DNA from: Escherichia phage 2B8
DNA: 48,763 nucleotides
Sequence record: NC_049952.1
Strand: one strand, 5' to 3'
Below are positions 17,801 through 23,800 of this stretch, piece by piece; within the stretch, counting starts at the first letter, position 1, and the number at the start of each line of letters is the position of its first letter. The position numbers were made by a program.

Positions 17801-20800
17801 ATCAAACCGGGCCATGATTATTACTTTTATATCCGCAGTGTGAACACCGTTGGCAAATCGGCATTCGTGGAGGGCGTCGGTCGGGCGAGCGATGATGCGG
17901 AAGGTTACCTGGATTTTTTCAAAGGCAAGATAACCGAATCCCATCTCGGTAAAGAGCTGCTGGAAAAAGTTGATTTGACGGAGGATAACGCCAGCAGACT
18001 GGATGAGTTTTCGAAAGAGTGGAAGGACGCCAACGATAAATGGAATGCCATGTGGGGCGTCAAAATTGAGCAGACCAAAGACGGCAAACATTATGTCGCG
18101 GGTATTGGCCTCAGCATGGAGGACACGGAGGAAGGCAAGCTGAGCCAGTTTCTGGTTGCCGCTAACCGTATCGCGTTTATTGACCCGGCAAACGGGAATG
18201 AAACGCCGATGTTTGTGGCGCAGGGCAACCAGATATTCATGAACGACGTGTTCCTGAAGCGCCTGACAGCCCCCACCATTACCAGCGGTGGCAGTCCTCC
18301 GGTATTTTCCCTGACATCAGACGGAAAGCTGACCGCTAAAAATGCGGATATCAGTGGCAGAGTGAATGCGAACGCCGGGACGCTCAACAATGTCACGGTA
18401 AATGAAAACTGTACGATTAAGGGCATGCTGGAGGCGACTCAGGTCAGAGGTGACTTCGTTAAAGCTGTATCCAAATCATTCCCGAAACAGGCTGGTACGT
18501 GGGGTAATACGGAAACACCAAACGGGACGGTTACAGTCACCATCAGCGATGATCATAACTTTGACCGTCAAATCATTATTCCGCCCATTATCTTTAACGG
18601 AATAGCGTATAGCGATCCGGGAAGTGGTAATAACCCGGGAGGTACAAGATACACGGGTTATGGTTTTGAAGTTCGCAAAAACGGTGTATTAATCGCATCC
18701 AGAGAAACTAAAGGGGCCATTCCCGGTAGTTACAGTGCAGTTATTGATATGCCTAGTGGTGGTGGTAGCGTCACTCTGGAGTTTAAGATTTTCCAGAAAG
18801 GCAATCAGGGGGCAGGGAATATCACCGACTGTACGGTGATTGTGACCAAAAAAGCGGCTTCCGGTATCAGTATTCGTTGAAATATTTATAACCCCAATAA
18901 AGGGCGTCAGGAATGACGCCTTTTTTATTGCAGAAAAGCGAGAGGTAATTATGCGTAAACTTTATGCAGCCATTTTGTCCGCAGCTATTTGTCTGGCCGT
19001 ATCCGGTGCGTCTGCATGGGCATCTGAACATCAGTCCACGCTGAGCGCGGGGTATCTTCATGCCTCGACGAACGTTCCCGGCAGCGATGATCTGAACGGG
19101 ATTAACGTGAAATACCTTTATGAGTTTACGGACACACTGGGGCTGGTGACGTCATTCAGCTATGCAGGAGACAAGAATCGCCAGCTTACCCGTTACAGCG
19201 ATATCCGCTGGCATGAAGATTCCGTGCGTAACCGCTGGTTCAGCGTGATGGCGGGGCCGTCTGTGCGCGTGAATGAATGGTTCAGCGCGTATGCGATGGC
19301 GGGTGTGTCTTACAGCCGTGTGTCGACTTTCTCCGGGGATTATCTCCGCGTAACTGACAACAAGGGGAAAACGCACGACGTGCTGACCGGAAGTGATGAC
19401 GGTCGCCACAGCAACACGTCTCTGGCGTGGGGAGCTGGCGTGCAGTTTAACCCGACCGAATCCGTGGCCATTGATATTGCTTATGAAGGCTCCGGCAGTG
19501 GCGACTGGCGCACTGACGGTTTCATCGTGGGTGTCGGTTATAAATTCTGATTAGCCAGGTAACACAGTGTTATGACAGCCCGCCGGTTCAGGCGGGCTTT
19601 TTTGTGGGGTGAATATGGCAGTAAAGATTTCAGGTGTACTGAAAGACGGCACAGGAAAACCGGTACAGAACTGCACAATCCAGCTGAAAGCAAAACGTAA
19701 CAGCACCACGGTGGTGGTGAACACGCTGGCCTCTGAAAATCCGGATGAAGCCGGTCGTTACAGCATGGACGTTGAGTACGGTCAGTACAGCGTCATTCTG
19801 TTGGTGGAAGGATTCCCGCCGTCACATGCCGGGACCATCACCGTGTATGAAGATTCCCGACCCGGTACGCTGAATGATTTTCTCGGTGCCATGTCGGAGG
19901 ATGACGTCCGGCCGGAGGCACTGCGTCGCTTTGAACTGATGGTGGAAGAGGTGGTGCGTAACGCAGAGGAGGCGAAGAAGAATGCCGGAGAGGCGGAGAC
20001 GTCCGCGAGGAATGCCGGCATATCAGCCAGTCAGGCAGAAGAGAGCGCTGCAAATGCTGACACTTCAGCAGGGGATGCATCGGAGTCAGCCCGGCAGGCG
20101 GCAGAAAGTGCAGTCTCTGCAAAGCAGTCAGAGGAAGCGTCCTCGTCCTCGGCCTCTGAGGCCGCTCAAAAAGCCAGTGAGTCATCACAAAGTGCAGCAG
20201 AAGCTGAATTGTCAAGAAAGACGGCAGAAAGTGCAGCCGGTAATGCAGCCAGGGATGCAACGACCGCAACAGAAAAAGCCCGGGAGTCAGCAGAAAGCGC
20301 ACAGTCAGCGGAACAAAGCAGGATAGCGGCGGAAGAGGCCGTAAACCGAATCCCCACCGTGGTGGGACCTCCCGGGCCAAAGGGGGAACAGGGGCCCGCG
20401 GGTCCTCAGGGGCCGAAGGGTGATAAGGGAGAGCGCGGTGACACCGGCCCTGTCGGGGCAACCGGCGAACGGGGACCGGCAGGTGATGCTGGTCCGGCAG
20501 GCCCGCAGGGGCCGAAAGGTGACAGGGGAGAGCGGGGAGAGACCGGTCTGACGGGAAATGCAGGTCCACAGGGTCCAAAGGGAGATACCGGTGCGGCAGG
20601 CCCGGCAGGCCCACAGGGACCGAAAGGAGAAACAGGTGCGGCTGGCCCGGTGGGGGCAACCGGACCTCAGGGACCGAAGGGCGATCCGGGGGAGACACAA
20701 ATCCGTTTTCGTCTGGGGCCGGCGAGCATTATTGAGACAAACAGCAATGGCTGGTTCCCGGGTACAGATGGTGCGCTCATCACCGGACTGACCTTTCTTG

Positions 20801-23800
20801 ACCCCAAAGATGCCACACAGGTTCAGGGGCTGTTTCAGCATTTGCAGGTCAGGTTTGGTGACGGGCCGTGGCAGGATGTTAAGGGGCTGGATGAAGTGGG
20901 CAGTGATACAGGCAGAACAGGAGAATGACATGAATATACTAAAAAAACTTATGCAGCGTCTGTGTGGTTGCGGAAAGCATGATGGCCGTGAACACGTGCA
21001 GTCGCTTACAGCACAACTGCGACTGGGGCCGGCAGACATCCTGGAGTCAGATGAGAATGGTATTATCCCGGAGCAGGACAGGGTAATCACGCAGGTGGTG
21101 ATACTGGATGCGGATAAAAAGCAGATACAGTGTGTGGTAAGACCGCTGCAAATCCTGCGTGCTGACGGGACGTGGGAAAATATTGGCGGGATGAAGTAAC
21201 CCGACAGCTTCACAAAACCGGAGTCCGGCTCCGGTTTTTGTTGTCATGTATGGGGGATGTTTGTTATTAGAGTGTGAAGTAATAAACATGTTAATACGAT
21301 GGAGTGAAGGATGCCTTTAAGGAGCAGTGATATGTCCATCTTGTTCCCTGGAGGGGGAATCATAAATTCTGATTGCGACCGAGGCATGGAACACTACTGT
21401 AGTTCAGGGAAGTTCGGCGATGAAGCTCATTCTTGCGACGCGTAATTATTATCTGGAATATGGTTTGCGTTTGTTACTGAAAGAATGCCGTGTAATTCTG
21501 GCTCAAGAATTTTTTATGCCGGAGAATCGCAGGGTTATTCTGGATAGTAAAGAATCCTGGTTAATAATCTGTGATAGTCAGTTGGGCCATTTAATGCGCA
21601 GCATGTTTCAGGGACGCCGTTTTATTCAGCTGGATCTGGAAGCGTTGAAAGGGGGACATGATATACATAATGCTGTGCGTAACAGATTGTGGACCTGGAA
21701 CAAAAAAGCACGGGCACTGACGATGTCAGAGATGGTGGTGATGTTTGGATATATCTACCGTCAGTTGCGTCCGTCCCATCTCGCCAGTGAGATGAGGGTA
21801 AACATAAAAACAGTTAACACTTTCCTGTATTCAGGGCTGGCGAAAAATGGGCTCAAAAGAAGTAGTGTAAGGTTGCTGGCAATTTCTGAGAACAAGCGAA
21901 TAGGGCATTATTCTGGAGCAGGACAGGGTAATCACGCAGGTGGTGATACTGGATGCGGATAAAAAGCTGATACAGTGCGTGGTGAGGCCGCTGCAAATTC
22001 GGTGTGCTGATGGGACGAGGGAAAAATTTGTGGATGACATTTGTTGTGGACCTTTAAGTCTGGAGTTCAAATTAAAATAGGGAGTTTTGTTATGCCATTT
22101 ACATTTTATTTGTCGTCCGAGAATCAATTGTCAATACAAAATATTGAAGCTTTGCAAAACGCAGCCAGAGCGAATGATACAGGGAATATTATAATAGGAG
22201 ACAGGCAGTTTTCTGTTCGTTATCAGAGCGCTATGGACGCTTTTATTGTTAATCCTGTTCAGGGGGAACTGTATTCAGGTCTTAATAATACTGTTTTGGA
22301 TGATGTTATCAGTCTGGCTGACGTTATTGAGAGTCGGTTGAATGGAGGAAGCTCATTTCTTGATGTATTCGACAGATATATGATACAAACAATGCAAACC
22401 ATGATGAATGGTAATGAGAGCGAGCCTGAATCGTTAGCGACTCGATTATCTTCAAGTGCTTTTTCGGTTTCTCCTGAGGATATATCCTGTATACCGGAGG
22501 CATTGCAGTGTCCGATTACATTGGCAATTCCAGAGCGTGGTGTTTTTCTTAGAAACTCCAAGGGTTCCTCAGTGTGTAGTTTATATGATGAAAATGCTCT
22601 CTCTCGTATAATTAATGATGGGGGGCATCATCCATTAAGTAGGGAGCCAATAACAGCATCAATGATTGTAAAGTCTGAAGATTGTATATTTGACGCCTCA
22701 AAGGGAAATTTTATTATAAAAGATAGTTAAAATATTTCAAATGAAACAATATTGACTTTCGATAGTTTATATAAAATCACCACAGGCATTCGGAGAGTGA
22801 AAAGCTGCCTGTGGTGATAAAAATATGATACGCGAGTTATTCTTCACAAGTCAGAAAGAAAGCAATGAAGGTAAGTAATATTATATCTCAAAATACAGGA
22901 CACTCTTTAGTGTCGCATCGTTCTGAATTTCAGCACGTAATGACTGAAATACGTAATAATCCTGTAAAATTTCTGGAAGAGAATTTAATTCTTAATCCAC
23001 AGTGCTATGCCCATCATGATGAGACATCTTTAATTACAGTTAATATTACAAGAGAGGATGGCTTGTTAAGACTAAAAGAAATGGAAGATGATATGGCTGG
23101 TAGTGATTACATTCTGTTTACAGGTATGCGTGATACTGATAGTCCGGAACGTTTTGATGCGCCTGCAGTTATAAGCTTGGGTAATCAGTGTATAAGCCTC
23201 CGGCGAAATGATATTTCTCAAACTATCCAGCAAAGTTCACCGTTATGGCTAACCAATCAGCAAAGCGGCTGTAGTGTTCTTATTGTCCGCCATGGATTAT
23301 CAGAATCTGGAGAGCAGCAGTATTCAATGATACATATGCGCCCAAGAGATGGTAACGATTTCATAGATGAACTTACGCCAGAGCTTTATGCTAATACTCA
23401 GGAGGTTTTGCTGGAGAGGGATATTCAGCGCACACTTGCTAACACCTTTCCCAATGAACATCCGGAGGCCTTTATTTTGATTCCTTCGGCGGAAAATTTT
23501 ATTGTAGATGGCAATTGCATTCAACTGATTGGTATTGGTAATGAGCAGGGGGAGTTTGATTTTTACAGGCAAGTTTATCCAGTGACAGGTGGAGAGCACC
23601 AGGTTGAAGCCTTGATGTGGACGCATTTGCCTGCATGAAAACGTTTATGAGCATTTTTTTGTGGGTTATATCAGTCCATGACTTTTGCGACAGTTTCTTT
23701 AGATCGGGAATATCAAGTGGAACGGCACAGCTTGGGTGAAAGATGCAGAAGCAGAAAAACTGTTTCGGATCCGGGAGGCGGAAGGAACAAAAAACAGCCT

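Follow-up and report, generated by a model that had tools for sequence, protein, structure and literature searches.

The side tail fibre gene (stf) of Escherichia phage 2B8 (NC_049952.1) is directly followed by a small gene, whose product of 89 amino acids (aa) resembles the tip of the fibre. Positions are those of the window, by which we mean the whole stretch of 48,763 nucleotides (nt) that was analysed. We consider it somewhat probable, at about 0.55, that the fibre is self-trimerising, that the small protein is a dispensable, late-expressed fibre accessory that forms a trimeric knob of its own, and that the pair constitutes one module. The fibre architecture, its self-assembly and the small gene have already been described, and the feature is known and very common; the original prediction, made from the sequence alone, had offered it as a lead, but it is already covered by Pfam, by PHROGs, by names given by the Prokaryotic Genome Annotation Pipeline (PGAP) and by two papers. 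The small protein belongs to what we call the ORF68 type, after its homologue in phage Sp5.

The stf gene (19615..20928, + strand) extends from an ATG at 19615 to a TGA at 20926-20928, with an in-frame GTG at 19609, and the list of open reading frames (ORFs), the translation and Pfam matches to PF08400, PF01391 (collagen) and PF06820 describe a 437-aa side tail fibre of the EPclA architecture, that is, PfN, coiled-coil stalk, collagen and PfC. The lambda Stf-like attachment end, PfN (aa 1-133; 19615..20013, +), covers positions 1-133 of 134 of PF08400 (Prophage tail fibre N-terminal; E 1.9e-68) and also matches a solved 94-aa tail fibre chain, 9e7m_Ta (E 7e-52). Over residues 1-160 the fibre shows 76% identity to lambda orf-401, the N-terminal part of lambda Stf; the two are near-identical to about residue 115, and then the similarity ends. 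The stalk, or 'PCoil' region (aa 134-250; 20014..20364, +), was read from the sequence as Ala/Ser/Glu-rich and is the least constrained segment of the fibre, with a ratio of non-synonymous to synonymous change (dN/dS) of 0.58; its length (~116 aa) and composition fit a trimeric coiled-coil PCoil, the oligomeric state being known from experiments on a homologue. The collagen-like block (aa 251-361; 20365..20697, +) is a single uninterrupted run of 111 aa between the stalk and the tip, supported by PF01391 and by matches to collagen in the PDB, and contains internal 56-nt direct repeats in its coding sequence. A regular-expression count gives 37 Gly-X-Y triplets, where the earlier figure was about 36. 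The fibre ends in the PfC knob (aa 363-426; 20701..20892, +), which matches PF06820 over profile positions 1-64 of 64 (123.8 bits against a cut-off of 25; E 3.5e-36), and in an 11-aa tail. Pfam and the orf-401 alignment therefore agree with the earlier description of the fibre as a chimera, with a lambda-like N-terminus and a distal part made of collagen and a different tip. With PfN, a single Gly-X-Y block and a C-terminal PfC all present, the fibre belongs by its sequence to the EPclA type.

EPclA is the name that Ghosh et al. 2012 (PMC3368898) gave to the architecture PfN-PCoil-Col-PfC; their Table 2 places 437-aa copies, whose stalk measures 116 aa and whose collagen region measures 111 aa, in almost all lambdoid prophages of the O157 strains Sakai and EDL933, and 111 aa is the collagen length of most EPclA entries. 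A comparison with the prophage fibres of enterohaemorrhagic E. coli (EHEC), which had been proposed as a check on the 2B8 fibre, thus finds the same architecture. Recombinant EPclA forms trimers on its own, with a coiled coil as its stalk (PMC3368898). The isolated PfC (residues 363-426) is likewise a trimer, and a Col-PfC fragment refolds fast after melting; together these two observations show that PfC nucleates the collagen triple helix (PMC3368898). By this precedent the lambda-type N-terminal domain would attach the 2B8 fibre to the tail, and the fibre would extend from there through a coiled-coil stalk and a collagen triple helix of 37 triplets to a small beta-rich PfC knob at its end. 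The coiled coil and PfC would be the trimerisation modules, with PfC registering and re-nucleating the collagen helix, as has been shown for the near-identical EPclA. A fibre that trimerises by itself would account for the lack of a lambda-type Tfa chaperone beside stf.

The small gene (20930..21199, +) encodes a 27-aa leader and a complete PfC domain. Residues 28-89 match PF06820 over positions 1-64 of 64 (123.3 bits, cut-off 25; E 5e-36), and the protein matches PHROG 576 over positions 1-89 of 89 (E 6e-60). Aligned to Stf by BLASTP, it shares 24 of 62 residues (39% identity, 61% positives, E 3e-12) with fibre residues 364-425, counted from the ATG at 19615 (366-427 in the 439-aa numbering from the GTG at 19609). 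This E value and the full-length PF06820 match in both proteins indicate that the small protein and the fibre tip are homologous, and that their likeness is not due to chance. The resemblance reported in the original prediction is thereby confirmed, and the motifs that it compared, LGPADILESDENG and LGPASIIETNSNG, are both found in their places. To judge from the sequences, the best explanation is that the small gene is an old duplicate of the fibre PfC knob. The 89-aa protein gives no BLASTP alignment with lambda Tfa at E values up to 100 and no match to PF02413 (Caudo_TAP) at E values up to 0.1. The earlier statement that this gene is not a lambda-type Tfa is therefore correct, but Tfa is not wholly missing from the region, as two C-terminal remnants of tfa lie further downstream.

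The start signals of the small gene overlap the end of stf. A Shine-Dalgarno sequence, AGGAG (20919..20923, +; read from the sequence), lies within the last stf codons, 6 nt before an ATG at 20930 that is itself 1 nt past the stf stop; the same AGGAG is annotated as the ribosome binding site in OM418627. A Shine-Dalgarno sequence of its own and an ATG this close to the fibre stop suggest that the small gene would be translated separately from the fibre and coupled to it in the late operon. The leader has a predicted helix at residues 3-11, followed by a Cys-Gly-Cys motif, and its sequence includes EHVQSLTAQLR and LGPADILESDENGIIPEQDR. A reading of the leader MNILKKLMQRLCGCG as a lipoprotein or signal peptide was dropped by eye, as the hydrophobic core is lacking.

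The gene pair is very common, and its two members are tightly linked. The small gene is present in 698 of 5426 complete E. coli genomes (~13%) and the fibre-type PfC in 697 of 5426; the median number of places in a genome is 11 for the former and 10 for the latter. Each query matched 294 records in the phage collection, nearly all of them holding both genes; the carriers comprise long-tailed Stx1 and Stx2c phages (Stx, Shiga toxin), short-tailed 933W-like phages, Evi, and lambda h434 hybrids. The PfC protein family is very small and restricted to this group of phages. A profile search of 1.84 billion representative proteins returned 86 matches, mostly Escherichia fragments; where a source is named, it is E. 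coli, E. albertii or Citrobacter rodentium. When one genome per species was scanned, matches came only from E. albertii and from a 725-bp contig of 'Xanthomonas pisi'. This contig (DSM 18956, contig_138) carries the small gene at 93% identity and most likely represents contamination with E. coli or phage DNA. In the classical laboratory hybrid lambda h434 imm21 (OM418627, 1921-6231), genes and gene fragments of nleB, nleC and nleH stand behind the same fibre pair, which suggests that the host-range arm of phage 434 is of the prophage type found in EHEC and enteropathogenic E. coli (EPEC). The small gene has been given several names: 'phage tail fiber C-terminal domain-containing protein' by PGAP, 'tail fiber protein' in PHROG 576, 'alternate tail fiber tip' in AU5Stx1 and 'tail fiber assembly chaperone' in OM418627.

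The small ORF is intact at 89 aa in all of the 86 loci compared, though several of the fibres upstream of it are broken. The junction core GGAGAATGACATGAA is kept in 82 of these; two others have one base changed, and the two in which other DNA stands upstream of the small gene turned out to be IS66-type insertions. The mean pairwise dN/dS of the small gene is 0.11 (0.086 for the PfC part and 0.27 for the leader), compared with 0.11 for PfN, 0.13 for the collagen and 0.24 for the PfC of the fibre, and its diversity is 0.12 at synonymous and 0.014 at non-synonymous sites. Judged by these ratios, the small gene looks to be under purifying selection that is as strong as that on the fibre attachment domain and stronger than that on the fibre PfC. 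All in all, the small ORF looks like a real, separately translated gene.

Peptides from a homologue point in the same direction. In the virion proteome of phage phi24B (cryo-EM preprint 10.64898/2026.04.10.717836, the part of Supplementary data 1 considered here), VITQVVILDADKK and ADGTWENIGGMK are unique to the homologue of the small gene, with a count of 3 each, and one fibre peptide in the same table has a count of 47. The preprint text is silent on the 'gp59' peptides; the authors tested hypothetical frameshift fusions of the fibre with gp59 ('Fusion_6159'). These data indicate that the homologue is translated during lytic growth and co-purifies with virions at a low level, and they speak for the expression of the small ORF, on which its earlier interpretation depended.

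The genetic evidence comes from Mondal et al. 2016 (PMC5155283), who removed, one at a time, those genes of the Stx2 phage Sp5 whose function was unknown. The collagen-like fibre ORF67 (ECs1228) was essential and labelled at the tail end, whereas the construct lacking ORF68 (ECs1229), which they describe as an 89-aa gene with a PfC domain, was not among the nine mutants without plaques and lysogenisation and was grouped with the non-essential late genes (PMC5155283). Since Sp5 without this homologue still forms plaques and lysogenises on K-12, the small protein is probably not an essential chaperone. The original prediction had seen in the locus a different logic of receptor binding and assembly that may define host range; its assembly part fits the published self-trimerisation of EPclA (PMC3368898) and the dispensability of the homologue (PMC5155283), but we find no support for the notion that the small protein sets host range. 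As a PfC homotrimer the small protein would be a free knob on a short N-terminal helix, acting as a dispensable fibre accessory at low stoichiometry. It may help or proof-read the assembly of the fibre knob, or it may attach to the fibre and serve there as a minor additional head for binding.

Several observations weigh against this interpretation. The Sp5 deletion was assayed on rough K-12 only, and an effect in natural hosts is possible (PMC5155283). The dN/dS values come from close copies (92-100% identical) and are pairwise averages without correction for the tree; the raw polymorphic sites number 27 at codon positions 1 and 2 and 26 at position 3, with many singletons. In the part of the phi24B table considered, two peptides are few and may stem from a contaminant that co-purified, which is how the authors explained Lom and Bor, or else from a fusion with the fibre, in keeping with the authors' row label 'Spike or just gp59?'. 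Finally, AlphaFold2 monomer models of the 89-aa protein and of the last 86 residues of the fibre have a mean confidence (pLDDT) of 58 and 54, respectively; both are beta-rich, in line with published circular dichroism data, but their confidence is too low for use, so that they lend no structural support to the stacking or docking of knobs. A Foldseek search of the 89-aa model against the PDB and BFVD returned nothing below E 0.1, which is uninformative given the low-confidence model, and sequence and profile searches of the PDB copy found no solved PfC structure, only chance matches to coiled coils.

An alternative explanation is that the small protein is a non-essential helper resembling Tfa in function, one that transiently templates or stabilises the folding of the PfC knob or the collagen register and then for the most part leaves the fibre, its only effect being that more fibres are made correctly. 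The small gene fills the slot after stf that tfa occupies in lambda, it is translationally coupled to stf, it shares a downstream terminator and motif with the tfa remnants, and one GenBank record names its product a 'tail fiber assembly chaperone'; its counts in the examined portion of the phi24B virion data are also low (3 against 47 for the fibre). However, the small protein is not needed for recombinant EPclA and its Col-PfC fragment to trimerise and refold (PMC3368898), deletion of the homologue produces no plaque or lysogeny defect (PMC5155283), and the protein has no similarity to Caudo_TAP or lambda Tfa. In addition, a domain that homotrimerises is an odd template for another homotrimer. 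We regard this explanation as unlikely, if worth keeping in mind.

Rather doubtful is a more specific version of the accessory role, in which the stand-alone PfC homotrimer is a minor virion component that docks on the fibre knob or stacks coaxially with it and so supplies a second binding head of a different kind, or else a soluble knob that masks the ligand of the fibre on debris of lysed cells, and in either case tunes adsorption to natural hosts bearing O-antigen. If this were the case, then a fibre tip would be completed by a separately encoded paralogue of itself, an unusual principle of assembly, and the effect on adsorption would be invisible in the K-12 assays done so far.

The small ORF might instead be a spare C-terminal cassette that is swapped into the fibre by recombination and so gives rise to host-range variants. 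Mondal et al. suggested such an 'intragenomic reservoir' for fibre variation in the case of Sp5 ORF68 (PMC5155283), the name 'alternate tail fiber tip' in AU5Stx1 expresses the same idea, and the small gene does adjoin the tip of which it is a paralogue. A 95-aa database protein (P0063) even joins collagen triplets directly to a PfC of the small type; however, it lies right at the edge of a 3.3-kb contig, could have arisen during assembly, and is not trusted. The two PfC coding regions share no exact nucleotide match longer than 11 nt, and homologous exchange needs more than this to be efficient. Apart from a distant unrelated protein, no fibre of at least 200 aa with a PfC of the small type is present among the 179 proteins retrieved from libraries of 5.8 billion and 1.84 billion proteins. 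A silent cassette would also need neither a conserved Shine-Dalgarno sequence and ATG, nor a conserved 27-aa leader, nor a dN/dS of 0.11. This makes the cassette quite improbable.

Very improbable, in our assessment, is that a programmed +1 frameshift or a bypass of the stf stop joins the small protein to the fibre, giving an extended chain in which two PfC knobs follow each other. Relative to stf, the small gene is in the +1 frame, which stays open as far upstream as 20798 and overlaps stf by ~130 nt, and the stf stop, UGA-C with AGGAG just upstream, is superficially prfB-like. The phi24B authors included 'Fusion_6159' models in their search, as seen in the part of the source considered, and a distant 565-aa protein from the representative-protein search (P0145), in which four tandem PfC-like repeats that pass the PF06820 threshold precede a collagen-like block, indicates that knobs can occur in series. 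Other multi-repeat matches from that search (P0137, P0150, P0152 and P0171) consist of Cna-B, CarboxypepD_reg or SprB-type repeats and are probably spurious. However, the stop is not preceded by a slippery P-site codon, as GAA cannot re-pair at AAU, and inspection of 20798-20928 by eye revealed no other canonical slippery site. Mondal et al. found no frameshift signal (PMC5155283), the part of the phi24B table examined contains no junction or leader peptide, and AGGAG with a 6-nt spacer to the ATG is an ordinary start site. The idea that the small gene is a decaying, functionless duplicate kept by linkage to the fibre and by recent spread is hardly credible, as, against the non-essential homologue in Sp5 (PMC5155283) and the many truncated copies and chimeric fragments in databases and in the window, 86 of 86 full-length copies are intact while several upstream fibres are broken, diversity is 0.12 at synonymous and 0.014 at non-synonymous sites, the gene is conserved in two very different virion types, and peptides were detected in the portion of the phi24B data considered.

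That the fibre and its accessory form one module is suggested by what lies downstream of them. The small gene is followed by a terminator hairpin (21214..21238, +) made of an A-tract, an 11-bp stem and a T-run; the fold of 21196-21250 has -21.2 kcal/mol and a z-score of -3.96. Immediately after it, at the end of the fibre module, comes a 28-nt junction motif, TGTTGYCATGTnnGGnGGATrTTTGTTA (21239..21266, +), which occurs three times in the window (21239-21266, 24060-24087 and 25503-25530), each time just past a hairpin terminator; the latter two copies close the tfa remnants. The terminator and motif are absent from the flank of lambda tfa. Where the ends of the module were compared, in 80 IMG/VR loci taken from viral_contigs, the terminator is kept in nearly all, and conservation reaches ~67 nt beyond the stop codon of the small gene, after which at least 12 different unrelated continuations follow. 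The shared terminator and motif, together with the divergence beyond them, suggest that the fibre pair is one mobile module whose 3' end is a common junction, with differing type III effector cargo beyond. The 28-nt motif could be a recombination anchor or a promoter element of exchangeable effector loci.

What look like remnants of fibre modules lie among this cargo. A truncated second copy of the small gene, comprising its 3' half and representing a third PfC copy (21904..22080, +), includes at 21904-22030 a direct repeat of 21059-21185 (repeat D3; 127 nt, 89% identity; 90% by blastn over query positions 130-251). The ORF remnant at 21940-22080 reads VILDADKKLIQCVVRPLQI, and PGAP labels the equivalent in a near-identical locus a partial PfC-domain pseudogene. 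The truncated copy lies 845 nt downstream of the full one, and the repeats bracket a 180-aa ORF (21420-21962; PHROG 6585, of unknown function) that has no match in Pfam or NCBIfam; its last codons enter the repeat in another frame, and PGAP treats the equivalent region as pseudogene fragments. The first tfa remnant (23736..23975, +) is the C-terminal part of a lambda-type gene (PF02413 positions 56-130 of 131, E 2e-31; 87% identity to lambda Tfa 115-193). The second (25244..25457, +) is more degraded (repeat D1, 74% identity to 23799-24012) and is annotated by PGAP as a tail fibre assembly protein, partial, with an internal stop. The PfC stub and the two Tfa stubs look like scars of module exchanges, and the position of the tfa remnants among effectors suggests that the 3' ends of other fibre modules came in along with the cargo units.

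The cargo itself is a type III effector island (22041-27551), with a G+C content of 33-46% as against 54-66% in the fibre. It comprises NleG (22041-22730), a WxxxE-family effector named 'bfpT-regulated chaperone' by PGAP (24462-25052), NleH (25560-26450) and EspS/Ibe (26676-27551). A 257-aa ORF in the island (22865-23638), a hypothetical protein to PGAP, has no match in Pfam, PHROGs, NCBIfam or the PDB sequences and is a candidate uncharacterised effector. The effector block as a whole matches a prophage of E. coli EC12 at 99.9% identity and strain 2015C-4136CT1 at 99.7%. The window as a whole reads as a complete lambda-like genome in cos-to-cos order, with the terminase and head genes first; J (15467-18880) is followed by lom (18951-19550), the fibre genes, the effector block and int/xis (~28.2-29.5 kb). 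Between lom and stf there is a terminator-like hairpin, found by a scan for intrinsic terminators (19577..19598, +), with 8 pairs, 7 of them G-C, and then a T-run. The best explanation of the region is that it is the side-tail-fibre module of a lambda-like EPEC/EHEC prophage.

Such fibres occur in ~10 copies per genome in EHEC and EPEC and are carried by Shiga-toxin phages; their ligand affects the spread of toxin and effector genes between strains. The terminator and motif that close the module may explain how effector cargo is swapped behind tail fibre genes. A specialist will not be surprised by these findings; what is added here is the intactness of the small gene, the signs of purifying selection on it, the virion peptides, the lack of a fibre with its tip, and the boundary formed by the terminator and the 28-nt motif.

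Among known systems, EPclA (e.g., ECs2717 of O157:H7 Sakai) is the closest to the 2B8 fibre: domain order, total length (437 aa), collagen (111 aa) and stalk (~116 aa) agree, and the limits of the EPclA PfC construct (363-426) coincide with those of the 2B8 PfC. The two differ only as alleles do, and the 2B8 copy comes not from O157 but from an EPEC-type prophage whose cargo is 99.9% identical to that of EC12. The small gene is a homologue of Sp5 ORF68, of L0122 of 933W (93% protein identity) and of phi24B 'gp59'; it has the same length of 89 aa as ORF68, and the primer used for the ORF68 deletion, ACAGGAGAATGACATGAATA, is identical to the sequence of the 2B8 junction between stf and the small gene. 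The fibres that accompany these homologues are different, however. Sp5 ORF67, 933W L0121 and phi24B gp61 are 645-aa EPclB fibres with two collagen blocks and a Pf2 repeat, which sit on a podovirus tail and are essential for infection, whereas 2B8 has a 437-aa EPclA fibre and is a lambda-like siphovirus, a type of phage whose side fibres should only be accessory.

Ghosh et al. liken PfC to the V domain of Scl2 of Streptococcus pyogenes (PMC3368898). Neither that domain nor the foldon of T4 fibritin is related to PfC in sequence. The foldon is likewise a small globular trimer that registers and nucleates a triple-stranded fibrous shaft. We know of no separately encoded copy of the nucleator in systems of the Scl2 or foldon type. 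Compared with lambda Stf (orf-401/orf-314) and Tfa (orf-194), 2B8 has the same order of J, lom and stf and nearly the same ~115 N-terminal residues in the fibre, and it likewise has a gene directly after stf. However, the distal part of the lambda fibre consists of Pf2 repeats and a Gly/His-rich tip, to which the distal two thirds of the 2B8 fibre, made of collagen and PfC, are unrelated; and whereas the next gene in lambda is tfa, in 2B8 it is a paralogue of the tip, with Tfa left only as C-terminal remnants downstream.

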